Positions 12,392 through 35,000 of a stretch of DNA of 64,000 nucleotides are shown in pieces; within the stretch, counting starts at the first letter, position 1, and each line of letters begins with the position of its first letter. Both the position numbers and the translations under genes were made by a program. The stretch is from Candidatus Doudnabacteria bacterium (GTDB lineage: Bacteria; Patescibacteriota; Doudnabacteria; UBA920): NCBI GenBank assembly GCA_963837465.1, contig CAWINB010000004.1, positions 522,853 through 586,852 on the forward strand, read 5' to 3'. A model generated the notes under the pieces. The model did not search any database. It saw only the letters and a program-made list of their open reading frames with translations, and was not told the DNA's origin.

Positions 12392-14014
12392 TCATAGTTC
12401 CCATACGGGTCGGTAGCTCAGTTGGTAGTAGCACCTGCCTCTTAAGCAGGTTGTCGTGGGTTCGATCCCCACCCGACCCACCAAGATATTACACAAAGGA
12501 ATTTTTCCAACTTTCCCAAGGGCTGCGCTTAGCGCAGCCCATTGTGTTTGTGGGGTGGAAACAATTTTTTGATTTTTTAAAAATAGGTGCGAGCCAAAGA
12601 TTTTTTGTGCAGCAGATTTTTTGGGGTGCAGTTCGGGCGAAAGCGTTATTTCGCCCAATTTTTGTGCGTCTTTTAAGAAGTTTTTGAGAGGTGCGAGCCA
12701 AATGTTTTGCTTTTGTTCCAGGCGGACAATTTGCTCGCTGTGCGTCTTTTTTTCTGATGTTAGTTTGTTCTTCTCCTGCCGGTATTTATCCGGTTCAATA
12801 TCTTGTTCTAGGTAACCTTGGAAAAGGCGCTCCTGCTTGCGGTCAATATCTTGTATCTTTAACCGCAAGTCCTGGACAAAAGCCGCGGTGGTTTGCGAAC
12901 CTTGCTCTGCGTCTTTGTCCGCCATGGCTTCCAGTTTCGTACCCCATTCCTTAGGCATAATAAACCCTTTTAGGACATTGGACAATTGCTTGTCTAGTTC
13001 CTCGGCTCTGATATGCAGTTGGGAGCAGGTAGTGTTTTTCTTTGTACAACGGTAATAAAGGTAATGGTGGATATTACCGTTTTTTTGATGTTTGGTCTTG
13101 GTTTCAGCGGTAATGCTTCTGCCGCATTCTCCGCATCTAAACAAGCCACATAAGGGCTTGGGGTTACTGACTTGACGGCTGGTTTTGCCTCGCTGTTTTA
13201 AGACTTCCTGAACCTTGTCAAACAGTTGCTTGGTAACGATAGGATGATGATTACCCTGGTGCAGTTCTCCTCCGTATCTGAACAGACCGCAATAAAATGG
13301 GTTGGACAGAATATATGCTGCTTGGTCGCGCTTCATGGCGTTACCTCCTGAACTCTGCCAACGCATAGTAGCTTTGGTTTCAATCCCATTGGCAAAAAAG
13401 AAAGTGGCTATATCTTCCAAGCTATATCGGCTCTCGGCATAGCGTTCAAAAGCTTGTTTGACTATGGGGGCAGTATTTTTATCTTGGACTATGGTCTTAC
13501 TCCGTAAATCGTTAAAATATCCTAATGGGGCAAGTCCCGGATATTCCCCACGCTTAGCTTTTTGGTAAAGTCCGCGCTTAGTGTTGGTGCTTAGGTCACG
13601 GACATATTGATTGGCTATCCCAAATTCTACATTCATGAGCATAACGTTATCAGCGGGATAATAACTGCGCTCCGGGGTTTGGATGTGTTTTATCGTTCCT
13701 TCCTGCAGCAGCCATTCTATCTGAGCGGCATCTACGGGGTTACGGGCAAGTCTATCCAGCTTCCAGCAGACAATGCCTTGAGCCTCACCCTTTTGTATGC
13801 GGGCAAGCATAATGGCAAAGGCAGCGCGACCCGGCCGTTTGGCTGATTGCTTTTCAATGAACTCGTCGGCAATAGTTAACCCCTGTTCCTTGGCCAGCAA
13901 CCTTAAAACCGCAAGCTGGTCTTCAATAGACCGGACTTGCTTGTCTTCAACATCGGTGGATTTGCGTGCGTAGAGGAAATAGTTGTTTACGGAAGAGATA
14001 TTTTTTGGTATCAT
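12392..14014 (-). CDS. Large serine recombinase (SR1); 3' end abuts and reads through tRNA-Lys
   Basis: Resolvase catalytic N-terminus YFLYARKSTDVEDKQVRSIEDQ...CWKLDRLARN (Ser nucleophile), recombinase domain, Cys-rich zinc ribbon, coiled coil. The last 30 aa (GRVGIEPTT...) are an antisense translation of the tRNA, so the true stop is uncertain. Confidence 0.85.
   Translation of the reverse strand: MIPKNISSVNNYFLYARKSTDVEDKQVRSIEDQLAVLRLLAKEQGLTIADEFIEKQSAKRPGRAAFAIMLARIQKGEAQGIVCWKLDRLARNPVDAAQIEWLLQEGTIKHIQTPERSYYPADNVMLMNVEFGIANQYVRDLSTNTKRGLYQKAKRGEYPGLAPLGYFNDLRSKTIVQDKNTAPIVKQAFERYAESRYSLEDIATFFFANGIETKATMRWQSSGGNAMKRDQAAYILSNPFYCGLFRYGGELHQGNHHPIVTKQLFDKVQEVLKQRGKTSRQVSNPKPLCGLFRCGECGRSITAETKTKHQKNGNIHHYLYYRCTKKNTTCSQLHIRAEELDKQLSNVLKGFIMPKEWGTKLEAMADKDAEQGSQTTAAFVQDLRLKIQDIDRKQERLFQGYLEQDIEPDKYRQEKNKLTSEKKTHSEQIVRLEQKQNIWLAPLKNFLKDAQKLGEITLSPELHPKKSAAQKIFGSHLFLKNQKIVSTPQTQWAALSAALGKVGKIPLCNILVGRVGIEPTTTCLRGRCYYQLSYRPVWEL
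12407..12483 (+). tRNA. tRNA-Lys (anticodon CTT)
   Basis: Manual cloverleaf. Acceptor GGGTCGG/CCGACCC, anticodon stem CCTGC/GCAGG with loop CTCTTAA, T-arm GTGGG-TTCGATC-CCCAC, 3' CCA. Its 3' end is the junction with the serine-recombinase island. Confidence 0.8.
12484..12629 (-). repeat. Serine-recombinase 3'-end module, copy a (authentic 3' end of SR1)
   Basis: About 146 bp including the hairpin GGGCTGCGC-TTA-GCGCAGCCC. Near-identical reverse-complement copies at 15292-15429 and 43316-43457. Boundary at ...CACCA|AGATATT. Confidence 0.65.
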
Positions 14015-14069: not shown

Positions 14070-14282
14070 ATGCGGTCAAGCAATAAATCTAAAATTTCTG
14101 GGAACATAAAAAAATACCGAAATAAACTCGGTATTTCACAAGACCGTCTATCCAAGTTAGCCGATGTGACTTACAACACAATGATTAAAATAGAATCCGG
14201 CGCTAACCAAAATCCTACAATAGAAACCTTGGCAAAAATTGCCAAAGCTTTAAATGTCGGAGTAGATGATCTTATTAAATAA
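14070..14282 (+). CDS. XRE-family (Cro/C1) helix-turn-helix regulator
   Basis: 70 aa. IKKYRNKLGISQDRLSKLADVTYNTMIKIESGANQNPTIETLAKIAKAL is a canonical HTH_3. Confidence 0.8.
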   Translation: MRSSNKSKISGNIKKYRNKLGISQDRLSKLADVTYNTMIKIESGANQNPTIETLAKIAKALNVGVDDLIK

Positions 14283-15291: not shown

Positions 15292-15429
15292 CTGCGTCCC
15301 CCAAAAAATCTTCCCTGTTCCCGAACCTGTTTTTAAAAAATCAAAAAATTGTTTCCACCCCACAAACACAATGGGCTGCGCTAAGCGCAGCCCTTGGGAA
15401 AGTTGGAAAAATTCCTTTGTGTAATATCT
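15292..15429 (+). repeat. Serine-recombinase 3'-end module, copy b (remnant in the opposite orientation to SR1)
   Basis: CTGCGTCCCCCAAAAAATCT...GGGCTGCGCTAAGCGCAGCCC...GTGTAATATCT. Encodes a ...LFLKNQKIVSTPQTQWAALSAALGKVGKIPLCNIL remnant (ORF 15285-15479). Confidence 0.6.
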
Positions 15430-15884
15430 TGGTGAATTTTCTTAGTGAAGCTCACACCTATTATATCCAAAACAGCTAACTTTGCCTACCCCATTACCCC
15501 CTGCAATACACCCTTGCCGAGGCCAAAACTTTAGCCTAAAATGGAAGCAACTGGTACTTTCCAGCTGTATGAACAGCTGTATGAACATCATTCATACAGT
15601 TTGGCTGTTAAACCCCTTAATTCCATTACCTCTCACTACTCCAAATACCCCTGACTACTATATATCACCAGATAATCTAACTGAACGACAAAATAGATAA
15701 TAATACTAAAAATAATAATAACTAAAATACTATACTTAAAATACTAAAATACTTAATACTAACTAAATACAAATATACTAAACTAACTTAAAACAAACCA
15801 AAAAAACAAGGGAAACAGAGAGGGGAAAAGTGGGGGGGTAGTTTCTCCCGCCGCCGGAGGCGGCGGTTTAGAGGGGGTGGACTG
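15430..15884 (+). repeat. 0.5-kb repeat family, copy 1
   Basis: Starts TGGTGAATTTTCTTAGTGAAGCTCACACC. 270-bp conserved core with a 72-codon ORF (MPTPLPPAIHPCRGQNF...) and hairpin CTGTATGAA-CATCA-TTCATACAG. AT-rich low-complexity spacer. G-run box GTGGGGGGGTAG...CCGCCGCC-GGA-GGCGGCGG...AGAGGGGGTGGA. Confidence 0.7.
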
Positions 15885-15908
15885 ATTTAAAAAATTAAAT
15901 TTGATTTT

Positions 15909-17534
15909 ATGGCAACTTCCAAATACGTTGTCGCCCATCCGGTCTCCCGTACCCCTTTGCCACCGTATTATCTTTTGCACCAAGGCGGCGCAGCAGGACA
16001 GGCCGTCTTGTCCCACCAGTTCAACCAAATGCCTGCGTGGCTTCAGACAGGTTCTCACATCGCCTCTTCCTTATTTTCTCTACTGGTTGTATATTTCATA
16101 CTAAGCTGGCTAGGATTTTTCCCCAAACACGCTTTTGAGAAGATAAAACTTAGAAAAAAGGACTTGGAAGCAGAATTTAAAGATAGTCTGTATTTTGAAA
16201 TCACCATCCCTAAAAATTCCCAAACCACGGCGTTCCAAGTCCAGCAAAAAATCCTCAAAGCCTTCCATTCAATTTACCAAGACCCGGTGGAAGGTGCTCA
16301 TAATTTTTCCACTACCTTTAGCCTAATTTATTTCTTCCAAAAGCTCTGGCGGCATTGGAAAGTCAAACGCAGTAAACAAGTATTTTTCAGTATGCAGATT
16401 TGGGCCCAGCACCCGTATATCTCCTTTAGGCTACAGGTGCCGGGGGCTGACTTTGGGCGCATTGAAAAGGCCATTTTCAATGCCTATCCCAATGCGGAGA
16501 TTACTATGCTAGAAAAATCCAAAGCCCTTGAGGAAATCAAGCAATTTCCACAAGGCTTTTTAAGTTACGGCGAAACTACTATTGAGGGACAATTTTACCA
16601 TAGAGTTAAAACCTTAAAAGACGTATCATCAGACCCTGTAGACTCTATTATCTCGGTTATGGAAGGTCTAAAGCCAGGGCAGTTTATGGCCTACAATATT
16701 TTAATCTCCCCTTCTTCCCATTACTTCAATCAAATCATCCACTACCTTATTGAAGAGCAGGAACAAAAAGGGGTGGTAGACCAAAACCAAAGAAGATTGG
16801 CCATTCAGAAATTTGGCAGCGGTTCGGAACTGGCCAATGCCCTAAACTCCGCCATGATTGAAAAGATGAAAGCCCCTCTTTTCCAGACCATTATTTCCTA
16901 CTGGGCTATTGCCGATACCAAACACAGTGCGGAAGATAAACTCAAAAGTATCCAAGGGGTGTTAACGGAAATCAATCAAAAGAACATGAATACCCTTAAG
17001 CACCAACACCTGTTTACCAAACAGGTGGGTGCTCTTGAGCGGAAAGGCAAGCTGACAGAGATTATCGCCCAAAAGCCGGTGTTCCGCCTAAAGCGTTTTC
17101 CCTTATGGCCATTTGCCAAGTTCAAAAACTACGGGCAGGTCATCTCTGACAGCGAGCTATACTCTTTCTGGCACTTGCCGAATACCACGGGAGGTACGGT
17201 ATCTTCCATTAGGCTGACTAAATTTAAAAAACTCCCGGCCAGCCAAGCGCTTCGGGAATATTCAGACAATTTTTTCATCTCCCTGGGTCATGCCAATTTC
17301 CGTATGCAGGAAGAAACACCAATCGGCATTGCCAGCTGGGAAGACATGAAAAAGCACGTTTACATCCTTGGCGGTACCGGCTCCGGCAAGTCCGAGACTT
17401 TAAAAACCATTCTCCATAGCCTACTGGAAAAAGACAACGACATATCCGCTTACCCTATTGAGCTTCGCCAGGGTTATGGCTGGCAAAAAGAATGCCCTAG
17501 CAGCATTACCCAAAACTGCCCTACTGATAATTGA
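15909..17534 (+). CDS. HerA/FtsK/VirB4-VirD4 superfamily ATPase, N-terminal part (gene interrupted by a frameshift)
   Basis: 541 aa. N-terminal TM segment LFSLLVVYFILSWLGFF. Walker A ILGGTGSGKSETL near its C-terminus. The frame changes between 17404 and 17476. Confidence 0.55.
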   Translation: MATSKYVVAHPVSRTPLPPYYLLHQGGAAGQAVLSHQFNQMPAWLQTGSHIASSLFSLLVVYFILSWLGFFPKHAFEKIKLRKKDLEAEFKDSLYFEITIPKNSQTTAFQVQQKILKAFHSIYQDPVEGAHNFSTTFSLIYFFQKLWRHWKVKRSKQVFFSMQIWAQHPYISFRLQVPGADFGRIEKAIFNAYPNAEITMLEKSKALEEIKQFPQGFLSYGETTIEGQFYHRVKTLKDVSSDPVDSIISVMEGLKPGQFMAYNILISPSSHYFNQIIHYLIEEQEQKGVVDQNQRRLAIQKFGSGSELANALNSAMIEKMKAPLFQTIISYWAIADTKHSAEDKLKSIQGVLTEINQKNMNTLKHQHLFTKQVGALERKGKLTEIIAQKPVFRLKRFPLWPFAKFKNYGQVISDSELYSFWHLPNTTGGTVSSIRLTKFKKLPASQALREYSDNFFISLGHANFRMQEETPIGIASWEDMKKHVYILGGTGSGKSETLKTILHSLLEKDNDISAYPIELRQGYGWQKECPSSITQNCPTDN

Positions 17535-18783
17535 CCCTAAAAACGACTTTGCCACGGATTTATTAACCATGATTCCTGAGAACAGGAAACAAGATGTGGT
17601 TTACTTTAATCCGCAAAGACAAAAGAACAGGCCTTTGGCTTTTCCGTTCTTTTCCAAGTTTTCCGGGGACAAGACCGATGAGGAAAAACTGGAGTTTTTA
17701 ATCTCCATTATGAAAAGGTTTGTGCAAATAGATTCCAGTTATTCTTGGGGGCCGGAACTGGAAAACATCCTAAGGCAACTGTTTGCTACGGCTTTTGTCT
17801 TGCCCGAGCAATCTCTGTCCGGCCTTGACTTACTGCTCCACCAGCAAAGCCAGATTAAAAACATTATCAGATATCTGCCGGAACGGCTTAAGGGGTTTTG
17901 GCAGGATTCAATTTTAAACCGAACAAACAACGATCTGGCTAAGTATTTGGCCACAACTAACAACAAGTTGGGCAAGTTTTTGGATTATCCCGAGTTTATG
18001 AATATCGTGGACAGACAGGGTACAAAAATATCCTTTGAAGATATGATTAACACCGGCAAGATATTTATAGCTAACCTTGGCTCTTCCAGCGAGCAGATGA
18101 AAAAGTACTATTCAGTTTATCTAACCGCCCATATTGCCGAGGCTATCTTTGGTCAGGCTAGGTTTAACAGCGAGGACAGAAAACCAGCAGTCTTTGTGGT
18201 AGATGAGTTCCAAAGAGTGGCCAGCGACATCTTTGAGACCTTGTTTTCCGAGGTTAGGGCTTTTAACACGGCCTTAGTCATCTCTAACCAGTTTATGGGT
18301 CAGCTGGATATTCGTATACAAAAATCCATAGAGTCCAACATTGCCACCAAAATCTTTATGCGGACCCAGTCGGTGGATGACGCCGAGATTGCCGAAAAGA
18401 TATTAGGCCAGAAGGTTTTAGTTGAAGACATTATTAACCTGCCCACAGGTACCGCTTACATCAAGACTTTGGTTAATGGTATACCCCAAGACCCCCTGTC
18501 TATTAATATCCAGAAAACAGAACATCCCAAAGACGCTTCCAAAGACATGGAGGATTACTTTATCAATATGGCTATGGACAAGTACGGTACACCCCTTGAG
18601 GACATATTAAAAGAGCGCACCGCCATAAATTCTCTCTATTATTCAGGAGGGCAAGAAAATAAATTTCACGAAGCTATGGGAAAGCATAGAACCTTTGCCG
18701 CCCCAGATCAAGGAACGGGAGGCAAAGACCAGCAGATGGAAGAACCGCCGGAGCCGGAGGATCCAGAGCCACAAAATATTTAA
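17458..18783 (+). CDS. HerA/FtsK/VirB4-VirD4 superfamily ATPase, C-terminal part
   Basis: LLIIDPKNDF (DP-x-G/N-D/E motif that follows Walker A in this superfamily), Walker B VFVVDEFQ, TALVISNQ. TTG start; continuous with 15909-17534 after a +1 shift. Confidence 0.55.
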   Translation: MSFARVMAGKKNALAALPKTALLIIDPKNDFATDLLTMIPENRKQDVVYFNPQRQKNRPLAFPFFSKFSGDKTDEEKLEFLISIMKRFVQIDSSYSWGPELENILRQLFATAFVLPEQSLSGLDLLLHQQSQIKNIIRYLPERLKGFWQDSILNRTNNDLAKYLATTNNKLGKFLDYPEFMNIVDRQGTKISFEDMINTGKIFIANLGSSSEQMKKYYSVYLTAHIAEAIFGQARFNSEDRKPAVFVVDEFQRVASDIFETLFSEVRAFNTALVISNQFMGQLDIRIQKSIESNIATKIFMRTQSVDDAEIAEKILGQKVLVEDIINLPTGTAYIKTLVNGIPQDPLSINIQKTEHPKDASKDMEDYFINMAMDKYGTPLEDILKERTAINSLYYSGGQENKFHEAMGKHRTFAAPDQGTGGKDQQMEEPPEPEDPEPQNI

Positions 18784-18805
18784 CAATTTTTGATTTTAAA
18801 ATTAT

Positions 18806-19708
18806 TTGCCCATGAATTTTAATAACCCCAATGTTAAATTAACCCCAAGACCCCAAGGCCAAAGCTACCACCTGCACATTAACCAATCGGCTTTGGAAGT
18901 TTTAGGTTTGATTTTTGAATTTAAACTGGCCACCGGCTGGCATATCTCCAGATTTTTAACCCAAAAGGACTATGTCCAATACGTCTATTTAAAGCTCCGT
19001 AGGATGTGGCAGGCAGGTTACTTGGAAAGCTTTAAAATTTCATCGGAATCCGCAAACGGCATCCCCGTCTACTATATACTCTCCCGCTCCGGCCTTAAAG
19101 TCTTAGCCGAACACGGCCTTTATTCTGAAAGCCAGCTGTCAAACTATCCCAAGGCTAAAACTCTGTTTTCTCCGCACTTGTTTAAACACGAATCAGCAGT
19201 TGTGGAACTGGCCAGTCTAGAAGCACAAAACAAGACAAAAGATTTAGACATCAAATTTAAAGGTGAACTAAGTTCCCAAGGCCAAAACATCTTAAGCGAC
19301 AAGACTGTTGAATCCTTAACTCCCGATTATACCGTCTATTATACCCATCAAGGCCAAAGTCATTGTGTCTACAGCGAATTGGAACGCACGTCAAAATCCA
19401 AAACAGCCCAGATTAAGAAAATTGAAAGATACTTGGATTTTTTGAGTTTTGAGCAAAGACAGGCTATAACGTTAAGGCTCATTTTCCAAACAGCGGGCAT
19501 GGAGCAGTCGTTTTGGTTAAACGCCTTAACTAATTTACCCAGGCTCCATAACATCAGGGTTGTTACAACAAATATTGCACTATTACACACGCCTGACAAG
19601 TTCCTTAAGCCCATTTATAGCTCGGAGCAAACAGTCAAACTCGGCAGGTTTGGCGGGCGGCTGACTGTTGATACATCCGGGCGTGTAAAGCTTTTTGAGT
19701 TTTTATGA
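18806..19708 (+). CDS. Replication-relaxation (Replic_Relax) family protein
   Basis: 300 aa. The N-terminal winged-helix-like segment LEVLGLIFEFKLATGWHISRFL resembles PF13814. Sits next to the coupling-protein-like ATPase. Confidence 0.5.
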   Translation: MPMNFNNPNVKLTPRPQGQSYHLHINQSALEVLGLIFEFKLATGWHISRFLTQKDYVQYVYLKLRRMWQAGYLESFKISSESANGIPVYYILSRSGLKVLAEHGLYSESQLSNYPKAKTLFSPHLFKHESAVVELASLEAQNKTKDLDIKFKGELSSQGQNILSDKTVESLTPDYTVYYTHQGQSHCVYSELERTSKSKTAQIKKIERYLDFLSFEQRQAITLRLIFQTAGMEQSFWLNALTNLPRLHNIRVVTTNIALLHTPDKFLKPIYSSEQTVKLGRFGGRLTVDTSGRVKLFEFL

Positions 19709-19856
19709 GTAGCGCGGTTACGGAGCTGTTAGATAAATGCGCGCGCAAGGGCGGGCGAGGCAAAGCGCATTACCTATTAATTTTCCCTCCTTTATATCTT
19801 AAAGGAGGTTTCGTTCTTTCAAACTAGTATGCGAATCAGCAGTTACTATAACGTGG

Positions 19857-20282
19857 TCAAGTACGTGAATACCAAGGAGCTTTCCCGCATCTTACCAATC
19901 GCTTGGTAACAGCAAGGTCTTCTGTTGATGGCTCAAGGCTACCGCTTGGGTGGTTATGGACGAATATCACTGAACAGCAATTCTTTAAAATAGCAGTCCT
20001 AAAACATTCCCGTGGATGGATAATGCTAGCGTTTAATGTGCCAATGCTAACCGTTTCTTTACCGGTAATTCTGTTTTGAGTGTCTAGAAAAAAGACTCGG
20101 AAGTTTTCTTTTCGGGCTTTTTTAATGTCTTTACACCTTAAGGCAATTTCAAGCGGACTGCAAATTGCATCCCGCACTGCCTTAACGTTTAAATTGTTAC
20201 TTACGTAGCTTTGGGCTTTCTCTTTAGCCTCGTTTTCGTTTTCAGCTGTGAAGCTGTAGTTAATGTTGATTTGGTATTCCAT
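19857..20282 (-). CDS. radC: RadC-like JAB/MPN-domain protein (3'-truncated)
   Basis: VIFVHNHPSGSLEPSTEDLAVTKRLV carries the HNHPSG JAMM motif. The ORF ends about 25 aa earlier than typical RadC. Good SD AAGGAG upstream. Confidence 0.7.
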   Translation of the reverse strand: MEYQININYSFTAENENEAKEKAQSYVSNNLNVKAVRDAICSPLEIALRCKDIKKARKENFRVFFLDTQNRITGKETVSIGTLNASIIHPRECFRTAILKNCCSVIFVHNHPSGSLEPSTEDLAVTKRLVRCGKAPWYSRT

Positions 20283-20304
20283 AAAACTCCTTTTTGATTA
20301 CTTG

Positions 20305-20419
20305 TTATGGCAACCAAAAAGAACTCTGGAATGTTTTGGCAGTCAAGGGTGCAGCCCCGCGGCGATTTATGCCCAGGCGTGCAGCGGAATAAAGAAGCCG
20401 CCCCTTTACGGCCAAAAAC
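20305..20419 (-). promoter_or_regulatory. Conserved structured leader element, copy A (upstream of radC)
   Basis: Shares TTATGGC...TGGCAGTCAAGGG...GCGATTTATGCCC...GAATAAAGA...CCCTTTACGGCCAAAAAC with 23494-23610. P1 TCAAGGG/CCCTT. P2 differs compensatorily between copies (GCGGC/GCCGC here, AAAAGC/GCTTTT in copy B). Confidence 0.35.
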
Positions 20420-20605
20420 CCAGAGTTACAATGGGAAGCCCTACGGAAGCAAAAAAGTTTTTAGTTTTAAAAAAATATAAACAAAACAAAAAAGCCCACC
20501 GTGTCCAGATAATGAGGCTGGGCGGCTGCTTTTTCGCTTTTTCGTTTCATGCTGAAAGCTCAACGCTTCAGCAAACCTCCTTTTATAATTTCTCTAGCTT
20601 TCTAA

Positions 20606-21283
20606 TTATTTGACCTGCCGCAGACCGCCATGTGGATGTCTCGGCCTTAGCTGCTCTTCATCGAGCGAATACTCCCGCTCAATGTGATTGGGGTTTACCA
20701 CCAGAATAGCCGTAGTCGGTCCGCCCCATGCCTTAGTACTTAGCAGGGTGCAGATACCTGTCCTTGGATTACCCGGTTTCTCGACGGCCAACAAGGTGTA
20801 ATCCAAACCAGCCCGCTGCTGGCCACCTTTTGACATATCGTAAAACCCAATATCCCTGGTGTCTCCTTTTTGCCGTCTGGGGCAATCCTCGCCGTGGCCG
20901 CAGACTTGGAACACCGCGACCAAGCTCGTTGGCATATCTTCCTTTATTGCCCAGCGAAGCCGAGTCGCCCCTATCAGACAAAGATCGAAGCGAACGCCCC
21001 GCATTTCCAGAATCCACTCGTTTACTACCGGCGGGACTTGGGCGGTCAGATCCAGAAAATGGATGGCTTGGTTTTGGGGCAGTAAGCCACCTTGTTCGTC
21101 GCGTGGTGCAATAACCGTTCTGCCCATCCCCAAACCAATATCAGCGGCGGCTCGCAAAAACCCTTGCAGCCAAGGAGGCTCGGTACTGAAGCCTGCTGGC
21201 AAACAGCCGGGGACGGACATTCCGTGACTATGAGCGTCACCCAGGACATCCTCGATCAGATCAAGCGATGGCATTACTATCAT
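20606..21283 (-). CDS. Hypothetical protein, GC-rich islet (possible metal-dependent phosphoesterase)
   Basis: 225 aa. Local GC about 55% against about 40% background. LGDAHSHG and CGHGED resemble weak metal-binding motifs. Confidence 0.35.
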   Translation of the reverse strand: MIVMPSLDLIEDVLGDAHSHGMSVPGCLPAGFSTEPPWLQGFLRAAADIGLGMGRTVIAPRDEQGGLLPQNQAIHFLDLTAQVPPVVNEWILEMRGVRFDLCLIGATRLRWAIKEDMPTSLVAVFQVCGHGEDCPRRQKGDTRDIGFYDMSKGGQQRAGLDYTLLAVEKPGNPRTGICTLLSTKAWGGPTTAILVVNPNHIEREYSLDEEQLRPRHPHGGLRQVK

Positions 21284-21531
21284 TTTTTTGATTTCCTTTT
21301 TTTTCTCGGCCCCGGCCAGTCGGCTAGGAACCGGCTAAAGTCAGCCTCGGCGATGATCCAAGACTGGCCGATTTTTGATGCTTTCAGTCGTCCCTCCGCA
21401 ATCATCAGGGTGACCGAGACTTGAGTGACGCAGAGTTCCAGCGCAACTATTGATGTCGTCAGCAGGGCCTGTCCGCAACAGGGACAAAGCCCTGGCTGAT
21501 AATCCGATTTGTTCCTCATTTCGTTTCCCAA
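21280..21531 (-). CDS. Excisionase/AlpA-family HTH DNA-binding protein
   Basis: 83 aa. LCVTQVSVTLMIAEGRLKASKIGQSWIIAEADFSRFL matches the HTH_17/Xis-family pattern. Basic tail KKRKSKK. Confidence 0.65.
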   Translation of the reverse strand: MGNEMRNKSDYQPGLCPCCGQALLTTSIVALELCVTQVSVTLMIAEGRLKASKIGQSWIIAEADFSRFLADWPGPRKKRKSKK

Positions 21532-22571
21532 AGGTTTCCCGACCTAATTGGGTAGCCGCGCAATTCGGGTATCCCCAAAAAGGTTGAACCGCTTTCCCGC
21601 TCGATCACAATGTCAATCGCTGCGTGCGACAACCCAGGGAATATGGGGCTCTGGCTTACATACTCTACATGCATCCCTGAATACCATCCGGGGAGCGGTT
21701 CAGGCCAAACGCCTTTTTCATTCGGACAAGCCTTGGCCTCCAAACCGATCAAGGATTCGCCATTGTAGCCAGCAGAAACTTCCACCAGACGCAGGTGTCC
21801 CTCCGGCACGTCTTTGAGGCGATGAACGAACTTAACCCGCACGCCCCATCCCAGCGTTTTTGACAATACAACGGCGCAATCCGCGAACTTTCCTCCTATC
21901 ATTTTTGCCGTTGCGAGGAAGTAAGTATTGTTGAATCGGTCACGATAGCCTACTACCAACTCCTGCTTGGTGTCGAAAAGCTCTTGCAAGTCAATGGAGA
22001 TTTCCTCAATCTCTACCCACTGTCCGGGAAGCTTAAATCCGAGCCGATAGAAACGAAGTAACCAGGACAGCTTGAGACTTCGGAATTGAGTATCTCGCAA
22101 CTCTTCGTGGTCTTTTTTGCTGATTAGTCCCCGGTCGAAAAGGTAGTCAATGCATTCTTCCCAATTCAAGCGGTATACTTTTTCCAAAAGACCGTATAGC
22201 CTAAATGCTGACCATGTGTAACCGCCCTCGGTGGCAATTACCCAGCTATCGCTAATGCGCGCCACGCAGAATCCTGCTCCATTACCTTCCCTGTCACGAT
22301 GAGCGATGTTACCGTGCACTACTGCCGGCTTGTTGTTTTGCCGGGCAACCTGTAGATCACGCAAAATCATGTGACCCAGTTCTGCCGTGGTAGCGACGGG
22401 AGCAACCTCGCCAGATGCACGATCACATTTCATTTGGTTAGTAATCGCTTTATGGCCGTCTCCATCTTGAGCGCAATCTGACGAAGTAGAGAACACCGTG
22501 CCGCGTAAAGCGTCACACACCCAAAGCAGAAAACCGCCTACGATAAACCACGTCTTATAGACTAAATTCAT
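21516..22571 (-). CDS. Hypothetical secreted/membrane-anchored protein, GC-rich islet
   Basis: 351 aa. N-terminal hydrophobic segment WFIVGGFLLWVCDA. Overlaps the HTH gene start (operon). Confidence 0.4.
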   Translation of the reverse strand: MNLVYKTWFIVGGFLLWVCDALRGTVFSTSSDCAQDGDGHKAITNQMKCDRASGEVAPVATTAELGHMILRDLQVARQNNKPAVVHGNIAHRDREGNGAGFCVARISDSWVIATEGGYTWSAFRLYGLLEKVYRLNWEECIDYLFDRGLISKKDHEELRDTQFRSLKLSWLLRFYRLGFKLPGQWVEIEEISIDLQELFDTKQELVVGYRDRFNNTYFLATAKMIGGKFADCAVVLSKTLGWGVRVKFVHRLKDVPEGHLRLVEVSAGYNGESLIGLEAKACPNEKGVWPEPLPGWYSGMHVEYVSQSPIFPGLSHAAIDIVIERESGSTFLGIPELRGYPIRSGNLWETK

Positions 22572-23043
22572 TTAAACCCCCTTCAAATTTTTGCTTGTTT
22601 CCAGTCACATGGGTGGCGAAATTGCCAAAACCACGACTTTCGCACAAAACAAAACCGCCTCAATCTTTTGTGAAAGAGGCGGTGTTAAGAACGAATTAAA
22701 TCACGCTCAAGACGGCCGCTTCCAGCAAAGTTGCAGCCATCATCATGTTTAAATTTTTTAGATAAAAATTCATGGGAATAAAATAAAAGACCCTTTTGCA
22801 AGGGCCTTGAATGTTGAAGATTTACACAAAACAAAATTCAGCCCTTGCGATTAAGGTTTAACATTTTCATCATTTCAGTTTTGGCAGAAATTTGTCGGTT
22901 CATAAGCTTAAAATCATCTTACTCCAATTAAAGAAAAATGTCAATGGGAGGGTACCACCATTATTTATTTGCGCCAATTTTTTTGCACTTATGGCCCATA
23001 GAAAAAGCCACCCTGTGAAGGATGGCTAAATCTTGTTTTTGGT

Positions 23044-23205
23044 TTAAACTTCAAAATATTTCTTGATGTTAAGGTTGCAGGAGCCGCAACCCGGACAGGT
23101 AATGGTGTCCAGGTCAATGATTTCTTGCCTGCTGGCGCTCCAGCAATTTTGGCAGTTGGGGCAGGTGATTAAGTATTGGAAGTAGGCTGTTAGTGTTTTT
23201 AGCAT
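23044..23205 (-). CDS. Small zinc-ribbon protein (53 aa), not in ORF track
   Basis: MLKTLTAYFQYLITCPNCQNCWSASRQEIIDLDTITCPGCGSCNLNIKKYFEV with CPNC...CPGC pairs. Confidence 0.3.
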   Translation of the reverse strand: MLKTLTAYFQYLITCPNCQNCWSASRQEIIDLDTITCPGCGSCNLNIKKYFEV

Positions 23206-23267
23206 TTGTGTTTTGTTAATTATTTTAAGAAAGAATTTTTGTTTTTGTTTTGGTTTTGGTAAGCGGT

Positions 23268-23465
23268 CTAGAGGGAATTCTTGACCGTGATGTACGAGGA
23301 AACTTTTTTCCCGTAATCGTGGTAGTCGCTGGACTTGGGATCTACAGACTTTCTCAACTCCAAGTAGTAGTTGATACTTCTCTGCAAAGCCGCCTTGATG
23401 ATATTTGACTTCATCTCCGGCGTCAGTCCCTGTTTTGCGCTAACTGCCTTTTTGAATTGTGGCAT
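23268..23465 (-). CDS. Hypothetical small protein (65 aa)
   Basis: Strong SD AAAGGAG 7 nt upstream of ATG. Preceded on the minus strand by structured leader copy B. Confidence 0.35.
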   Translation of the reverse strand: MPQFKKAVSAKQGLTPEMKSNIIKAALQRSINYYLELRKSVDPKSSDYHDYGKKVSSYITVKNSL

Positions 23466-23493
23466 GTTAACTCCTTTCTTTGCTTAATTATTA

Positions 23494-23610
23494 TGGCGAA
23501 ATAACACTGGCCGCAGGTTATGGCAGTCAAGGGATTAAAAGCGATTTATGCCCTACGGGAAATAAAGAGCTTTTACCCTTGACCGGCCATAAACGGACAG
23601 TAAAATGGAA
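23494..23610 (-). promoter_or_regulatory. Conserved structured leader element, copy B
   Basis: TGGCAGTCAAGGG...TAAAAGC-GATTTATGCCCTACGGGAAATAAAGA-GCTTTTA...CCCTTGACCGGCCA. Nested helices P1, P2 and CCC-TAC-GGG. A hairpin AGAGCGGT-ATGAATA-ACCGCTCT with T-run at 23655-23690. Confidence 0.35.
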
Positions 23611-23997
23611 ATCCATAAGAAAGCAAAGGCTGTTTTAAAAGCCGTAGACAACATAAAAGAGCGGTATGAATAACCGCTCTACATTTTTTGGTTTGTATTA
23701 AAATTTATTGGGCTTGCTTTTACAAGTCCAATTCGTCTAGATCAATCCCTACATCTTCCATTCTTTGTAAGGCCTCGTCTGCGTCGCCATTGTTAATCTG
23801 CTCGGCTAATTCTTCCTTAAGCCCGTCTTCGTCAACTTCCATTCTGATTTCATCGTCCAAATCTTCAAGCGGCATAAATTTTTCATATTATACTTCAACT
23901 TTACCATTCAAATCTATCAACCATATTTTGGATTGCTCCTTTAATGCGGTCAATAATTCCTTGTCGTTCTTTAATTTTAGGCACTTCTGGTAGTAAA

Positions 23998-26700
23998 TCA
24001 ACAATTTCCTGGCCATTGGGCAGTTTTTGTGTGTAAAGGTATTCGCCAATCAGAATGCTCAAACTTTTCAACTGGAATATTTTCAGCCTTTGCAATGCTC
24101 TTTAAACTCGCGGAACGCTCACTTGCCCAAAAATCGCTAAAGGCTTTTTCAACATCGTCCGCTTTGCCGATTTTTGGCAAATTTTCTTCAATAAATTTCT
24201 TGATTAAGTCTTTTTTCTTACGAAGCTGGACATCCCTGTCAAATAAACGCAAAATTTCTTCAGTTTTCTTTTTGCGCACAACATCGGAAGTGCTGTTTTT
24301 AATCCCCGCTAGAAGCAAAATAATGTAGTCAAAATTAATAATATCTCTGGTTGTCAATTCAATTTCAAAATCAATCTGGTCTAAAATAGATTCGGGTCCG
24401 TTATTGTTATTTTTACGGTCTTCATAAACATCTAAGTATTTGCTCTGGTAATCAAAAAATTCTTGCTCGGTTATCCCGAGATCCATAAATGAAAAATCCG
24501 CAAAAGTTTCCAGTGATGATTTGATTCTTAGCAAGTCACGAAATGTCTTTATAAACTCCGCTTTTTCTTCCTCGCCCTCTAGTTCGTCAACAAATGCAAT
24601 AGTTGGCACCTTTTCTCGCAATTCAGCAAGTTTATCTTCAAACTCTTTTTTTTGCATTTCGTAAGGCTTTTTAAATACGACTTCTTTAGCGTTTTCGTCG
24701 CCAAAAAGCGCCAAGGCTGTATCGGTTGCCTCTTTTAAGTTCCTAAACGACACAATATTGCCGTGGGGCTTGTCGGAGTTCAGCAGCCTGTTAGTGCGCG
24801 AATACGCCTGAATAAGCCCGTGGTAGCGTAAATTCTTGTCTACATACAGCGTATTAAGCCGTGGGCTATCAAAACCTGTTAAAAACATATTTACCACCAA
24901 GACAAGGTCAACTTCCTTATTCTTGATTCTTTTTTGCAAGTCTCGGTAATAATCGTAAAAACGGTCGGTTGAAAAATTGGTAGAATATTGTTTGTTGTAA
25001 TCTTTTATGCAATTTTCCAAAAAGTCTCTCGAATGCTGGTTAATGACCGCCCCTTCATCATTAAACACATCCACATCGAGCATATCGGAACTTTCGTCCT
25101 CATTGGCTTTATAAGTAAAAATTGTCGCAAGGCTAAAATCTGCCGTTTTTTTATTTTTTAGTAATTTATAGTATTTCTTTAATATTTCAATACTGGAAAC
25201 GGCGAATAACGCGTTAAATTTTCCATTCTTTGTTTTTCGTTTCCAATCCGCCAGAACGTAATCAGTAATTTTATTTAGCCGGTCGTCGCTTTCCAAAACT
25301 TCTTTGGTGTTTATGCCTTCCACCAATGAATCTGCAAAAATATCCGCATCTAGCGTATCTGGGTCTTTTTGTTTGTATTTTCCAACGTATTCAACCGCAA
25401 AACCCAACACATTGTTGTCGGAAATTGCGTGGGTAATAATGTATTTGTGCAAACATTCTTCAAAAACATCCACCGTGGTTACGCCACCAACATTATTTTC
25501 GGCAAAAATTGGCGTACCGGTAAAACCAAAAAGCTGGGCTTTTTTGAAGAAGCCTTTTATCCGCGCATGGGTCTGCCCAAACTGGCTTCGGTGGCATTCA
25601 TCAAAAATCACTACCACTTTTTCATTAGCCAAATATTCAAATTGTTTTAAATACGATTCTCTCCCAATAGCAATATCCAATTTTTGAATTGTGGTAACAA
25701 TAAGTTTTCTGTTTTTGTCTTCCAATTGTTTAACCAGGCTGTAAGTGTTGTTCGTACCGTCCACCGCGCCTTCGGAAAAAGAATTAAACTCATTAGTTGT
25801 TTGGATGTCCAAATCCTTCCGGTCAACCACAAAAATCACTTTTTTGATTTCCGGTATTTGCGAAAGCACCTGGCTGGCTTTAAATGATGTTAAAGTTTTT
25901 CCCGATCCGGTTGTGTGCCAAATATAGCCATTTTTGTTAGTTTCCTTAACGCGTTTTTCAATAGCTCTAACTGCATAATACTGATATGGCCTTAGCACCA
26001 TTGGGATTTTGGTAGTCTCCGCCAGTATAATATATTCCGCAATCATTTTTGACACAGTACACTTTTGCAAAAATACGTTAGCAAATTCATCCAGTTGGTT
26101 AATTTTCCTGTTGTCTACATCTGTCCAATAAAAAGTCTGCTCAAATGATTGTTTTGAGTTATTGGAAAAATATTTTGTATTGACTCCGTTAGAAATAACA
26201 AAAATCTGTATATATTCAAATAATGTTCCGGTAAAAGAATGCTTATGATATCTCTGTATTTGGTTAAAAGCCTCTTTTAACTCCATCCCCCGGCGCTTTA
26301 GCTCCACCTGTACCAGCGGCAAGCCATTTACCAACAAAGTTACATCGTACCTGTTTTCGTACTTGCCCACCTGGGTAATTTGCTGTGCCACCTGATACTC
26401 ATTCTTGCACCACTGTTCCATATTAAAAAACCGCGCATAAAAGATACTCCCATCATCCCGGGTCAAAACAAACCTGTCCCGCAAAGTCTTGGCTTTCTGG
26501 AATCTATCACCTTTGTTTAAATGATTTAATATCCTTGTAAATTCATCATGCGTAAAAACTACCCCATTAAACTTTTCCAACTGCTTACGTAAATTGACTA
26601 TCATTGCAGCACTGTCTTCCAACACCACAGGTAAAAATCCCAACCGCCTAAGCTGCTCAATTAATGTTTTTTCAAGTTGTTGTTCGGATTGATGAGTCAT
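23998..26700 (-). CDS. hsdR: Type I restriction enzyme R subunit
   Basis: 900 aa. Motif [14 protein letters not shown], motif [11 protein letters not shown] (DEAD/DEAH-box helicase core), N-terminal nuclease-like region. Last gene of the hsdM-S...R operon. Confidence 0.9.
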
Positions 26701-26703
26701 AAA

Positions 26704-28605
26704 TTATGATTTATTATTCCATATTTCTTCTAATACAATAGTCCCACTATTAGGTCTATTTTTTTTATCTAGGAGATCAATGCTAACTTTTACTGGAATT
26801 TTTACAGCCAGACCTGCAAAAAAACAGCTACCTGTTGAAAGTATAGAAAGAGAGTCAAATGATAGTTTGTCTAAATAAGACACTGTTTTATTAATTGCAT
26901 TTATATCATAATTATTTACCAATTTGTGAATAAAATAATTATGCAACTGAGAGATAATTGTTGTAGAAATATCGTAAGGTCTTTGACTGGCAATTGTTAA
27001 AAAAACATTAAACTTTCTTCCTTCTTTGATTATTTCTTCGAATGTTTCAAGTCTATAATCTTTCCAGGTTTCACTTTCTCGTTCTGAGGAACTCGATAAA
27101 ATATTATGAGCTTCGTCTACAATTAAATGCAATGATTTGCCTTCATAATTATTTTTATGTTCTTCATAAAGTTTTTTGGCAATAATTAGGGGTAATGTTT
27201 TTTTAATTTCAAGATTAGTATTTTTTAAATTTAAAACAACTAAATTTTTACCAGATGGAAAAATTGAATTGCTACTTTCTGTATCTAATATCTTCTCTAT
27301 ATCTTTTTGTTTACTCTTTAATTTATTAATTGCTGGAGAAATATGCTCATTTTGAGCCTTATCATTATAGACATCAAATATTATTTGTAGGTAAAGAAAA
27401 TGTATTAGTTTTGAGATGGCATTTTTAGGGAAAACATAGGCATCAATTTTATTATATAAATCTAAGTTGACTATTTCCTCTTCAGAAATTTGTTTATGTA
27501 CCGTACTACGGGGTAACATAAAATAATTTAAAGTATTGTGCCATTCTGGTATTTTGATTGAATTTGTATCCGTATCTGATATACTCAGAATAATTTTTAT
27601 ATAATCTAATAAAATATGCGACTTTTCTTTTATAACCATTAACAAAATATCTTTTAATCTTTTTTTGAGAATATTTTTAAAAAATTCAAGTGGGTTATTA
27701 TCGTTGCCCATCTCATCTTTTTCTTTATGAATTTTCCTGTAAAAATCAATGGCTCTACTGATAAATGGTCTTTGAGTTTTGTCAGTAGCATTTGAAAGAA
27801 TGGAAATTAGTTCAACATTCATCAAATCGGCTTCTTTTAAGGGTATCTTTTTATCTGTTTCAATTGCACTTAATTCCTTTTTTGTATCTAAAAAATACAC
27901 TTGTTTATTTTCCGTTAGAATCTCATCTTTGTCTCCACCTTTAATTTCTTTTGCATATTCTCCATTAAAATCAAAAATAACAAATTTTGAATTTTCATTA
28001 AAATTGGAGTTGTCTTTATATAATTTAAATAGCTCATGATAAATCTTTGCCAAAGTATTAGACTTACCGCTACCGGTATTTCCAAAAATACCAATATGGC
28101 TGGCGAACAAACCGTTAACACTTACTTCAATTTCTTGAGAAGGCTCTTCTGTTAAAGGACCCAAGGGTATTTTTTGTTCTGTATCTTTATAAAATTGATG
28201 TAAGATATTAAATTCTTCTTTATCTAACAAATAACACTTGTTGTCAATTAATGGCATTTCTTTAATACCCTGCTCAAATTTAACTCCATCAAAATGTCCA
28301 AATAAAGTAACCTCTAAATATCGGACAATTTTTTGTTCTTCTTTATTATATTCTTCATTAAAAATCCTTTCGGTTGTGATAAATTCTCCCTCTACCTTAC
28401 CAATAATTTCAACAAACCCTTTCATAATTTTTACAAAACCACCAACAGAAACATTTTTTAAAATTTTGCCCTGATATAAAAGATGGGATGAGTTTTTATT
28501 TTTATTTACCTTAATTTTTACCTTTCTGCCCTCAACAGAAGAAACGTAGCCAATAATAAAAATTGACTCCTTAGTAAGGCTTCTTTGTATTTGTTCATTA
28601 CTCAT
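26704..28605 (-). CDS. HerA-like (DUF87) ATPase, defence-associated
   Basis: 633 aa. N-terminal HAS-barrel-like region (YLEVTLFGHF), Walker A GIFGNTGSGKSNT, Walker B LHLIVDEAHN. 3-bp gap to hsdR, 8-bp overlap with upstream gene. Confidence 0.7.
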   Translation of the reverse strand: MSNEQIQRSLTKESIFIIGYVSSVEGRKVKIKVNKNKNSSHLLYQGKILKNVSVGGFVKIMKGFVEIIGKVEGEFITTERIFNEEYNKEEQKIVRYLEVTLFGHFDGVKFEQGIKEMPLIDNKCYLLDKEEFNILHQFYKDTEQKIPLGPLTEEPSQEIEVSVNGLFASHIGIFGNTGSGKSNTLAKIYHELFKLYKDNSNFNENSKFVIFDFNGEYAKEIKGGDKDEILTENKQVYFLDTKKELSAIETDKKIPLKEADLMNVELISILSNATDKTQRPFISRAIDFYRKIHKEKDEMGNDNNPLEFFKNILKKRLKDILLMVIKEKSHILLDYIKIILSISDTDTNSIKIPEWHNTLNYFMLPRSTVHKQISEEEIVNLDLYNKIDAYVFPKNAISKLIHFLYLQIIFDVYNDKAQNEHISPAINKLKSKQKDIEKILDTESSNSIFPSGKNLVVLNLKNTNLEIKKTLPLIIAKKLYEEHKNNYEGKSLHLIVDEAHNILSSSSERESETWKDYRLETFEEIIKEGRKFNVFLTIASQRPYDISTTIISQLHNYFIHKLVNNYDINAINKTVSYLDKLSFDSLSILSTGSCFFAGLAVKIPVKVSIDLLDKKNRPNSGTIVLEEIWNNKS

Positions 28606-29719: not shown

Positions 29720-29725
29720 ATACCT

Positions 29726-30928: not shown

Positions 30929-30930
30929 AA

Positions 30931-32508: not shown

Positions 32509-32602
32509 AAATATATTTTATAGCTACTTTTATAGTATATACTCTCTTGCTAAATTAATTCCGAAATGTTAGACTAAGGCTAATAACCTTAACCCTAACA
32601 AA

Positions 32603-33022
32603 ATGTACCAAATAAAATTGTCGGTAAGCGAGCTTAAGAAGATTAAACAACTACAAGAAAAGGAGAAAAATGCCAGAGTTTTGCGCCGTCTTGAAGCCAT
32701 AAAGCTCTTAAGCCAGGGGCAAAGCCATCAGGAGATCGCGGAAGCGCTGAATGTATGCATGGATACAATCACAGATTGGGTAAAAATTTACCAATCAGGG
32801 AAACTCCCAGGATTATGTGAACTGCAATTTAAAGATAAGCGAAAGTCAAAAATTAATGATTATGTAGAGCAAATCAAACAGGATGTAAAAGACAACACCA
32901 TTACGACTTTAGCTGAAATGCAGGCCTGGATTAAGGAAAAGTACTCAATTGAAATGGAACAAAGCTGGTTATGGCGTTGCTGTAAAAAAAACTCAATTTA
33001 TCTTACAAAAAAACCCGTATAG
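32603..33022 (+). CDS. IS630 transposase OrfA (HTH part)
   Basis: LRRLEAIKLLSQGQSHQEIAEALNVCMDTITDWVKIY is a Tc1/IS630-type HTH. Ends just after A AAA AAA (33007-33013). Confidence 0.75.
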   Translation: MYQIKLSVSELKKIKQLQEKEKNARVLRRLEAIKLLSQGQSHQEIAEALNVCMDTITDWVKIYQSGKLPGLCELQFKDKRKSKINDYVEQIKQDVKDNTITTLAEMQAWIKEKYSIEMEQSWLWRCCKKNSIYLTKKPV

Positions 33023-34228: not shown

Positions 34229-34299
34229 AATCTCACCAGAACCAAACCTGTAAATCTATATATTGGTATTTCTCGTCTTTTGCTCTGTTTTTGTCTTTT

Positions 34300-34997: not shown

Positions 34998-35000
34998 GAG

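Follow-up and report, generated by a model that had tools for sequence, protein, structure and literature searches.

A probable array of integrative elements at the 3' end of a tRNA-Lys gene in Doudnabacteria, and a patescibacterial clade of large serine recombinases whose reading frames run into tRNA genes

The window studied here is a 64,000-nucleotide (nt) stretch of the genome of a Candidatus Doudnabacteria bacterium (GenBank assembly GCA_963837465.1, contig CAWINB010000004.1, forward-strand positions 522,853 to 586,852). It contains SR1, a gene for a large serine recombinase (LSR) that lies on the strand opposite to a tRNA-Lys(CUU) gene and whose open reading frame (ORF) continues through it. 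The SR1 protein matches the Pfam families Resolvase (PF00239, 8e-21), Recombinase (PF07508, 1e-15) and Zn_ribbon_recom (PF13408, 5e-11), and it shows distant similarity to the structures of the A118 and SPbeta integrases. Residues Y15, R17, S19, D87, R88 and R91 are invariant in a comparison of 30 homologues, and we take R17/S19 and D87-R88-R91, by analogy, to be the counterparts of resolvase catalytic residues. SR3 (68% identical to SR1, with the same three Pfam domains) and an interrupted gene, SR2, are also LSRs by domain content, with SR2 giving no Zn-ribbon match. An Rfam scan of the window detects two tRNAs only, and the R and M sequences described below match no known RNA family.

An initial annotation of this DNA held that SR1 has no stop codon before the tRNA and ends at the tRNA's 3' CCA. 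The first statement is borne out, since the translation reads antisense through the entire tRNA for 29 more codons. The second is true of the conserved part of the protein, which ends ...GKIPLCNILV at the pentanucleotide CACCA, here called the core. It does not hold for the ORF, which continues as ...CNILV/GRVGIEPTTTCLRGRCYYQLSYRPVWEL (GRVGIEPTT...) to a stop codon at 12392-12394.

The core and the adjoining module M (together 12479-12626) make up the last ~148 nt of the conserved part of SR1. M holds a perfect palindrome (GGGCTGCGC-TTA-GCGCAGCCC) at 12520-12540, which is the hairpin reported in the initial annotation, and a T-loop-like motif (AGGTGCGAGCC) near 12586-12596. Two inverted copies of this segment lie further along the window. 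Positions 12479-12626 are 99% complementary to 43315-43462 over 148 nt, and 12479-12591 match 15322-15434 at 98% over 113 nt, with a perfect run of 105 nt from the core and an indel beyond the matching part. Both copies had been reported before, at 15292-15429 and 43316-43457. The copies are real, but their limits are those given here, and the start at 15292 falls in a diverged part. Two direct, diverged copies that had likewise been reported are found at 54438-54564 (85% identity) and at the 3' end of SR3 (39402-39546; for 39402-39528, 68% identity to the M of SR1 and 78% to the 43-kb copy).

All copies of M start at CACCA. Left of the pentanucleotide lies the tRNA at 12479 and a repeat named R at 15430-15434 and 43458-43462 (inverted); at 54438 the flank is an incomplete R, and at 39402 it is an arm that resembles R. 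The earlier claim that copies of M are fused at the same nucleotide to a 0.5-kb repeat instead of the tRNA is thus correct, with an exact CACCA boundary everywhere. Four full copies of R (Table 1) share this identical CACCA end, after which they diverge. Chance cannot account for stretches of 113-500 nt that match at 98-100%.

A search with SR1 (cut-off E <= 0.001, 8,000 candidates scored) yields more than 3,500 significant homologues, and the named ones come from Patescibacteria, the candidate phyla radiation (CPR). Among the best 120 homologues, 84 end in a peptide that is antisense to a tRNA T arm, for example G-I/F/L-E-P-T/A/S, and about ten end in tails similar to ...RTHFIKNS, which occur only on contigs shorter than 9 kb. 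Genomic context was surveyed at 80 loci from GTDB species representatives with 48-88% identity, the closest of which is in a metagenome-assembled genome (MAG) of Doudnabacteria. At 60 of these loci a tRNA gene on the opposite strand abuts or overlaps the 3' end of the recombinase gene (SR). Four more (L017, L043, L048 and L051) abut tRNA 3' ends missed by ARAGORN, two (L038 and L040) abut the 3' end of a transfer-messenger RNA (tmRNA)-like gene (GGACCCGGGTTTAACTCCCGGCATCTCCACCA), four or five abut R-like sequence, and nine are cut by contig ends. In total, the SR 3' end is located at a tRNA or tmRNA in 66 of 71 untruncated loci, and the tRNAs represent 15 amino-acid identities. The 3' ends missed by ARAGORN are preceded by an apparent group I intron (...GATGATATAGTCCAC...); from their sequence and a published account (PMC13011429), they are read as intron-containing tRNA-Asn-like genes.

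Since the fusion of SR to a tRNA gene recurs across the family, it is the normal integrated state of a mobile family and not a peculiarity of this locus. The window and about 60 independent loci agree with the initial annotation on four points: tRNA-Lys/M is an attL-like junction, R/M is an attP-type junction, the att core lies within the 3' end of the recombinase frame, and the ends of the tRNA and of R take equivalent positions. Placing the core inside coding sequence had been called unusual. This is so in comparison with textbook serine integrases, but in the present family it is the rule, as the 84 antisense tails indicate. The arrangement may extend beyond the clade. A metagenome contig (L143, PVBE012017421.1) encodes at 55-1506 an LSR 31-33% identical to SR1 and SR3 that overlaps the 3' end of a tRNA with the same last 25 nt, in a flank that is comparatively G+C-rich by eye.

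In 46 of the 60 tRNA-linked loci, an inverted copy of the gene's own 3' end (the last 110-190 nt, core included) is found 1.8-9.8 kb away. This copy, M', reaches the core with enough flanking sequence in 43 loci, and in all of them its outer flank is R-like, with the consensus ...TTGATAAAAT-AGGTTCGAGC-N14-core. In seven loci with enough flank, two complete chromosomes among them, R occurs again further on in the opposite orientation; there too its end is the core, beyond which the sequence is unrelated (x), and in L054 and L058 an obvious hairpin and then a T run follow. The general layout can be read as tRNA/M-SR...M'/R'-cargo-R/x, in which the successive cores c1, c2 and c3 would represent attL, an internal inverted attP-type copy and attR. 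Many GTDB contigs (L005-L075) stop 41-139 nt beyond the M'/R' junction. These stops fit assembly breaks in the inverted repeat of R, and short-read MAGs therefore probably give too low a count of the three-site layout.

The tRNA/M junction of the window lies at 12479 and its R/x junctions at 34737 and 53440, and the same pattern is present in seven other genomes. Such hybrid junctions, taken as attL and attR, allow the putative attB and attP to be reconstructed. In 30 of 43 loci, N72 is the first nucleotide from which the tRNA and R sides match; in 10, 2 and 1 loci the match begins 1, 2 or 3 nt earlier, respectively, and these earlier starts fit chance extension. At the other edge, R/M and R/x diverge right after C74 in four of nine comparisons. 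With these boundaries at N72 and C74, exchange is confined to N72-N73-C74. In the window, the inferred crossover lies within CAC at 12479-12481, most likely at CA (12479-12480), inside the Val codon of the terminal ...L-V. The initial annotation had placed it inside ACCA/AGATAT. The hexamer is excluded by the junction comparison, which limits the shared overlap to N72-C74, or CAC of CACCA in the window.

If the crossover lies at N72-C74, then the CCA of the tRNA is supplied by the element. The attB sites reconstructed for L031 and L058 consist of a normal tRNA end followed by a trailer. In the reconstructed target of L031, the encoded CCA is replaced by CAA on integration, and the reverse occurs in L058. 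Among the loci inspected, CCA is removed from the tRNA gene (...CAC/AAG...) in L031, L016, L027, L047 and L072 and added in L058. tRNAs that lose their encoded CCA must rely on the CCA-adding enzyme, and those that gain CCA are relieved of it.

The R arm carries a -10 box and a T-loop-like motif (GGTTCGAGC) whose distance from the core is 4 nt greater than that of its counterpart in the tRNA. Read outward, TCGAAC occupies positions 14-19 of the tRNA arm and 18-23 of the R arm. The consensus ..TAAAATAGGTTCGAGC-N14-core does not change with the targeted tRNA, and only the core of 3-7 nt matches the tRNA. A position weight matrix (PWM) of the R arm, searched against 1.08 Mb of fetched DNA, gives 62 matches, nearly all at c2 or c3. 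R is independent of tRNA type and is therefore DNA of the element. The idea that R is a displaced tRNA 3' fragment is ruled out by the shared consensus at all tRNA types and by the 4-nt difference in spacing. In a structural model of the LI integrase from Listeria, the zinc-ribbon domain (ZD) motif is displaced outward by 5 bp in attP relative to attB (PMC3783163). By analogy, the 4-nt shift fits a reading of the R arm as a P-type and of the tRNA as a B-type half-site.

Short repeats are found in R upstream of the -10 box. In the window (34560-34680) these are two copies of CTGTTCATACAG and one of GCAGGGGGTAATGGGGTAGG, and the R arms of L010, L029, L034 and L035 have direct or inverted short repeats (...GATGAAGGGG...GATGAAGGGG...) or GC-rich palindromes in this region. 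They look like operator sites for a regulator encoded by the element.

A palindrome with at least six perfect pairs is present in M at +31 to +42 from the tRNA end in 49 of 61 loci. Such palindromes occur in 3.5% of shuffled sequences and in 9% of cases elsewhere in the same genes. Their sequence varies widely (GGGCTGCGC, CGCTTCGCG, GCGACGC, TTTTCTTTGGC), and the palindrome is kept although the DNA there is coding and specifies the motif WAALxAA / YAxLRxAR. Nearly every pair is of the Watson-Crick type, and the exceptions (17 G·T against 10 C·A) favour neither strand. The hairpin of the window is flagged as a terminator on the tRNA strand with a T tract, and the T tract is often missing in relatives. 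Every junction is thus flanked by a hairpin and, on the opposite side, by a promoter-like site or a tRNA gene. The palindrome is a candidate terminator for the tRNA or R transcript, a candidate protein-binding site, or both.

Conservation of this kind bears on a prosaic reading of the locus, in which decayed gene fragments or MAG assembly errors produced the repeats and the overlap with the tRNA is a coincidence of ORF calling. The window is probably from a MAG, its inverted repeats of 289-502 nt with 96-100% identity are prone to mis-joining, and many related contigs break 50-140 nt beyond c2. The same architecture is nevertheless found in 46 independent assemblies from many studies, including the complete chromosomes OY970358.1 and OY970354.1, and its boundaries are exact to the nucleotide. 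An artefact would also have to account for a palindrome seen in 49 of 61 loci against 3.5% of shuffles. Recurrence across genomes effectively refutes this explanation, to which we give almost no weight.

Counted from the core, a median of 105 nt separates M and M' from their first mismatch. This perfect identity ends, in at least 14 loci, exactly at GGTTC/GAGCC (codons for FGSNL), a third copy of the T-loop-like box, and M' carries a conserved, A-rich insertion of ~10 nt inside this sequence. The insertion is seen in L010, L024, L027, L034, L042, L050, L053, L058, L061, L068, L080, L081 and others, and in the 15322 copy of the window. The combination of identity with a conserved insertion shows that M' is an old, maintained, non-coding feature and not a random duplication. 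The M'/R' copies had been described as portable att-like modules. Instead, they are a conserved, built-in feature that separates integrase module from cargo and is present in 46 of 60 relatives.

The integrase module and the cargo are each flanked by long and almost perfect inverted repeats, all with the same core at their ends. This arrangement raises the possibility that [M...M'] is an invertible cassette and that the recombinase acts as an invertase, flipping its own gene or the cargo in the manner of phase-variation or shufflon systems. Inversion at the cores, including inversion of the cargo, would leave all junction types unchanged, and the perfect identity of M and M' suggests ongoing exchange. 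However, the orientation of the integrase is essentially fixed, with its 3' end at the tRNA or tmRNA in 66 of 71 untruncated loci. No flipped integrase module was found, and the four or five loci that abut R have no tRNA/M copy upstream. The ~10-nt insertion that distinguishes M' from M beyond ~110 nt in at least 14 loci implies that swapping of whole arms is infrequent. Inversion also leaves the 15 tRNA types, the variable cargo, the remnants and the tandem arrays unexplained, and we regard it as quite improbable.

Related genomes provide evidence of mobility. In another genome from Doudnabacteria, an SR with 90% identity adjoins the same tRNA-Lys through the same junction. The island there is 3.9 kb long, compared with 42 kb here, and it has different cargo and an M' truncated against holA. 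The initial annotation had reasoned that its proposal would fail if related genomes carried the SR-tRNA fusion as a conserved chromosomal arrangement. The fusion is indeed present in this relative, but the island and cargo differ, and family members occupy 15 tRNA types and tmRNA. The arrangement is therefore mobile and not a fixed chromosomal feature. M-type arm scars are found next to tRNA-Lys in the metagenomes L158 and L164. In the metagenome contig L122, a tRNA-Lys(UUU) gene with identical last 25 nt is followed directly by a sequence that resembles S4, the trailer-like flank at the far end of the window's E3 element (77.5% identity over 80 nt), with no LSR within 9 kb. Joining position 12483 of the window to 53445 recreates the L122 arrangement.

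The region from 12.4 to 54.7 kb, between tRNA-Lys and holA, is best read as an array arranged head to tail, in which three elements (E1, E2 and E3) are fairly complete and two are remnants (Table 1). E1 (12484-34741) comprises SR1, a helix-turn-helix (HTH) gene, a 323-aa ORF of no assigned function, M'/R' at 15430-15434, 18.5 kb of cargo and R. The 70-aa HTH protein is likely a regulator of the integrase module, and the same divergent HTH-SR arrangement is found in L002 and L084. The cargo of E1 includes, in addition to the genes listed in Table 1, a type I restriction-modification (R-M) system, a SIR2-HerA pair and an IS630 insertion sequence (Pfam). The R-M genes are HsdR (23998-26700), HsdS (29726-30928) and HsdM (30931-32508), with a HerA-like ATPase gene (26704-28605) and a SIR2-like gene (28598-29719) interposed between HsdR and HsdS. 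This region (23998-32508) has a G+C content of 28-32%, compared with ~43% elsewhere. The IS630-like insertion at 32603-33639 consists of an HTH ORF and a DDE_3 ORF and is apparently split.

E2 begins with an M-type arm, S2, that has a palindrome/terminator at 34752-34769. SR2 (35001-36287, 428 aa) and ORF101 (34692-34997) form one frame with a single in-frame stop (...FARVKG-stop-LMDRS...). Together they span ~531 codons, which is a normal LSR length, and the frame crosses the core as ...ENALV/NFLSEAHTYYIQNS before its stop codon. SR2 may be a pseudogene or may be expressed by read-through. S2 was also considered as the native trailer of tRNA-Lys; this is ruled out because the interrupted SR2 reads through S2 into the core in the usual frame of the family, and S2 is therefore E2's own arm. 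A G2P-type Rep gene is present at 36403-37242, and E2 ends in the R-like arm X at ~39340-39401 (TATAAT-AAGGTTGTAAT...). This element has no c2.

E3 (39407-53439) contains M3/SR3, an IS3 copy, M'/R' at 43458-43462, an Ig-repeat protein and R. Positions 43083-43375, upstream of its c2, are homologous to the end of the relative's small island. The IS3-like element (HTH_Tnp_1 and rve; 41729-42996) lies between SR3 and its M' copy. The cargo has a 2,192-aa ORF (45199-51777, reverse strand) for a giant repetitive surface protein with He_PIG Ig-like domains and internal DNA repeats (families D1, D4, D8 and D10) at spacings of 855/576 nt. The three LSR genes SR1, SR3 and interrupted SR2 cross the CACCA core with Leu-Val codons. 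The pseudogenised 3' end of an SR1-type gene, with stops in all frames, also ends at a CACCA core, and it adjoins holA (54769); with its partial R, it is presumably the oldest remnant. The junction X/M3 can be read as an attP-type junction in direct orientation that joins E2 and E3 in tandem. Both R/S2 and X/M3 would then be direct-orientation attP-type hybrids, as expected between head-to-tail neighbours. Decay grows with distance from the tRNA.

Table 1. Features of the array between tRNA-Lys(CUU) and holA, with positions counted from the first nucleotide of the window
Feature	Positions	Strand	Basis
SR1, large serine recombinase, 540-aa ORF	12392..14014	-	Pfam, translation, homologue tails
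tRNA-Lys(CUU), putative target gene	12407..12483	+	ARAGORN; Rfam RF00005, 65.6 bits
Core c1, CACCA (C72 A73 C74 C75 A76)	12479..12483	+	identity boundaries of junctions
Module M, last ~48 conserved SR1 codons, putative P'-type arm	12484..12626	-	repeats, palindrome
Cro/CI-type HTH protein, 70 aa, divergent from SR1	14070..14282	+	Pfam HTH_3 2.6e-14
M' and core c2 (TGGTG 15430-15434), non-coding inverted M copy	15322..15434	+	98% repeat
R' copy 1, putative P-type arm	15435..15839	-	promoter-like TAGGCA-17-TATAAT (15488-15460) toward core
E1 cargo	15840..34342	.	Pfam: HerA/FtsK-like ATPase, TraG/VirD4-like coupling protein, Replic_Relax, RadC
R copy 2 and core CACCA 34737-34741, distal end of E1	34343..34741	+	promoter-like site 34683-34711
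E2	34742..39401	-	more distant LSR, Rep gene, R-like arm X
Core CACCA 39402-39406, M3 and SR3	39402..41054	-	ORF reads on into arm X
M' and core c2 of E3 (TGGTG 43458-43462)	43315..43462	+	99% identical to SR1 M
R' copy 3	43463..43959	-	repeat comparison
R copy 4 and core CACCA 53440-53444, distal end of E3	52943..53444	+	repeat comparison
S4, trailer-like flank	53445..53520	+	hairpin 53451-53458 / 53469-53476, then TTTAAGTTT
SR4, LSR of a different subfamily (30% identical to SR1) with a truncated N-terminus; remnant of E4	53542..54390	-	
Partial R (typical GGATATAATTAGTTCGTACC...), core 54438-54442 and pseudogenised M	54350..54720	+	repeats, frames

That E2 has no c2 can also be accommodated by supposing two separate mobile modules. 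One, T, would be [M-SR-M'] with terminal inverted repeats of ~110 nt, and the other, U, would be an integrase-less [R'-cargo-R]. Each would insert at the core after a tRNA-like arm, T at the tRNA and U beside T. The two modules have inverted repeats at their limits, and these stop at a single core that all three junction types share. T can be as small as 1.8 kb, with the SR gene alone (L054, L058 and L081), and the relative L001 has T-like content without R. In L001, however, M' is truncated, and the missing R may reflect a deletion. An insertion of T alone (tRNA/M...M'/native trailer) is absent from 46 loci, with M' abutting an R-like arm wherever the junction is within the contig. Neither a U-only insertion (tRNA/R') nor a palindromic R/R' joint is present in 164 loci. 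Two modules are thus an unlikely explanation, though slightly less so than an invertible cassette.

The reading we favour, and consider likely, is that the region is an array of integrative elements at the 3' end of tRNA-Lys(CUU), inserted by LSRs of a large clade in Patescibacteria. In this model, the attP borne by the element would be R/M. The final ~35 nt or more of the integrase gene would form its right arm, M, and the end of R its left arm, whose T-loop-like motif would imitate the tRNA arm of attB but sit 4 bp further from the centre. Strand exchange, catalysed by the LSR, would involve the final acceptor base (N72) and the discriminator (N73) of the tRNA and extend no further than N72-C74. 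Integration would generate attL (tRNA/M), in which the T loop and acceptor 3' strand of the tRNA form the B-type arm and the integrase ORF runs into antisense tRNA, and attR (R/trailer). The element would supply the tRNA's CCA and a downstream palindrome/terminator. Most elements also carry a third site, the inverted, non-coding M'/R' between integrase module and cargo. Later arrivals would presumably integrate beside earlier ones and leave attP-type R/M joins.

Several observations weigh against this model. The motif shift is 4 bp and not 5 bp as in the LI integrase, and the M arm has no motif that matches the TCGAAC shift. A position-specific consensus comparison of the R and M arms gave no convincing dyad match at any register, and R/M is therefore not a typical quasi-palindromic attP. 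The R arm of the window (AGGTGTGAGC...) is an atypical variant with a poor score against the family PWM. No close relative yielded a tRNA-Lys(CUU)-holA site that was cleanly empty, and L122, which is from a different organism and has a different isoacceptor, may be either an unoccupied site or an old scar. No product of recombination was seen. With respect to a circular form, 20 whole contigs, including all those of attP type, have no terminal overlaps; the contigs that encode the attP-tailed proteins P0011, P0025 and P0079 are short and linear. Finally, canonical LSRs are not known to use attL or attR as targets, and a tandem array therefore requires non-canonical target use or another route. 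A newcomer could plausibly enter at any distal end, through its tRNA-like R arm, or proximally at the intact tRNA.

A more detailed proposal is tentative. The clade might read the T-loop box (GGTTCGA), which is conserved universally, together with the acceptor end and be retargetable to any tRNA or tmRNA by a change of 2-3 nt in the core of its attP, with M'/R' as a working part of the system and not a relic; we hold this combination to be possible, though doubtful. One speculative role for M'/R' is that of a small gene (R promoter, core and M' palindrome) whose transcript, perfectly complementary to the integrase mRNA at its 3' end, would keep expression of the integrase low. Such an antisense RNA gene would explain why the first ~105 nt of M and M' stay identical. 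M'/R' could also, again as speculation, be an accessory or second recombination site. Integration would exchange the C-terminal tail of the integrase and set the tRNA promoter opposite its gene, which could conceivably serve as a sensor of the integrated or excised state.

Serine integrases are the main tools for one-way insertion of DNA and were believed to avoid tRNA genes. If confirmed, the clade would provide a natural example of how the geometry of attP and attB half-sites is encoded. It would also open a way to integrases that act on conserved, universally present targets and supply candidate genetic tools for CPR/Patescibacteria, which have almost none. The array also shows cargo for defence and conjugation (type I R-M, SIR2-HerA, coupling protein/relaxase) accumulating in very small genomes. 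The present LSR clade, with its tRNA and tmRNA targets, is apparently undescribed. A literature search found no description of CPR serine integrases at tRNA genes; subscription journals were outside its coverage, and a prior description is possible. A 2020 survey of 2,168 genomes assigned 14 of 297 serine-integrase elements to tRNA or tmRNA genes and called this use of such genes previously unreported and in need of proof (PMC7192596). Marked features of the present clade are an attP that overlaps the integrase 3' end, a P arm that mimics the tRNA, a crossover at the discriminator and, within the element, a conserved second copy of the site in inverted orientation.

The closest system described so far is that of the ssrA islands of Dehalococcoides, in which a CcrB-like protein of ~540 aa, DsiB, is encoded on the reverse strand beside attL at the 3' end of tmRNA (McMurdie et al. 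2011, PMC3146451). Tandem islands lie downstream there as well, and the evidence in both cases is bioinformatic only. The Dehalococcoides islands are inserted in the T loop with a 20-bp direct repeat of ssrA, whereas here a core of 3-7 nt lies at N72-C74 and the distal arm is a mimic. The present family also differs in its use of at least 15 tRNA types as well as tmRNA, in an ORF that crosses the core, in an internal inverted attP-type site and in having no DsiA-like partner. SCCmec elements, which are inserted by Ccr at rlmH (orfX), are similar in that an LSR inserts DNA at the 3' end of a gene that remains functional and in forming composite tandem arrays (discussed in PMC3146451). In contrast, their target is protein-coding, ccr lies inside the element and not across the core, and they have neither a tRNA mimic nor an internal inverted site.

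Phage serine integrases such as A118/LI, SPbeta, phiC31 and Bxb1 share the domain set and the use of short sites with minimal identity between attP and attB, and their recognition motif is further out on P-type than on B-type arms (PMC3783163). Their targets are protein-coding or intergenic, their attP lies beside int, and the two arms of attP are alike, unlike R and M.

Among tyrosine-integrase islands at tRNA genes, including tycheposons, there are parallels in the use of tRNA 3' ends, in the integrase gene beside the tRNA and in restoration of the tRNA by the element (10.1101/2020.12.28.424599). Newer elements of the tycheposon type accrete next to the tRNA and decayed ones are found further away (10.1101/2020.12.28.424599), as in the window. 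These islands depend on another class of enzyme and have long identical repeats of the tRNA fragment, whereas the shared sequence here is 5 nt (CACCA) in the window and 3-7 nt family-wide. No Phage_integrase domain was found by Pfam in the island ORFs scanned.

In SSV1-type integrases and in the integration-dependent immunity systems of mycobacteriophages, attP lies inside a gene and integration changes the encoded C-terminus. Those systems use tyrosine recombinases. In the LSRs described here, only a short, non-conserved tail changes, which for SR1 amounts to 16 residues encoded by R compared with 29 residues encoded by antisense tRNA.

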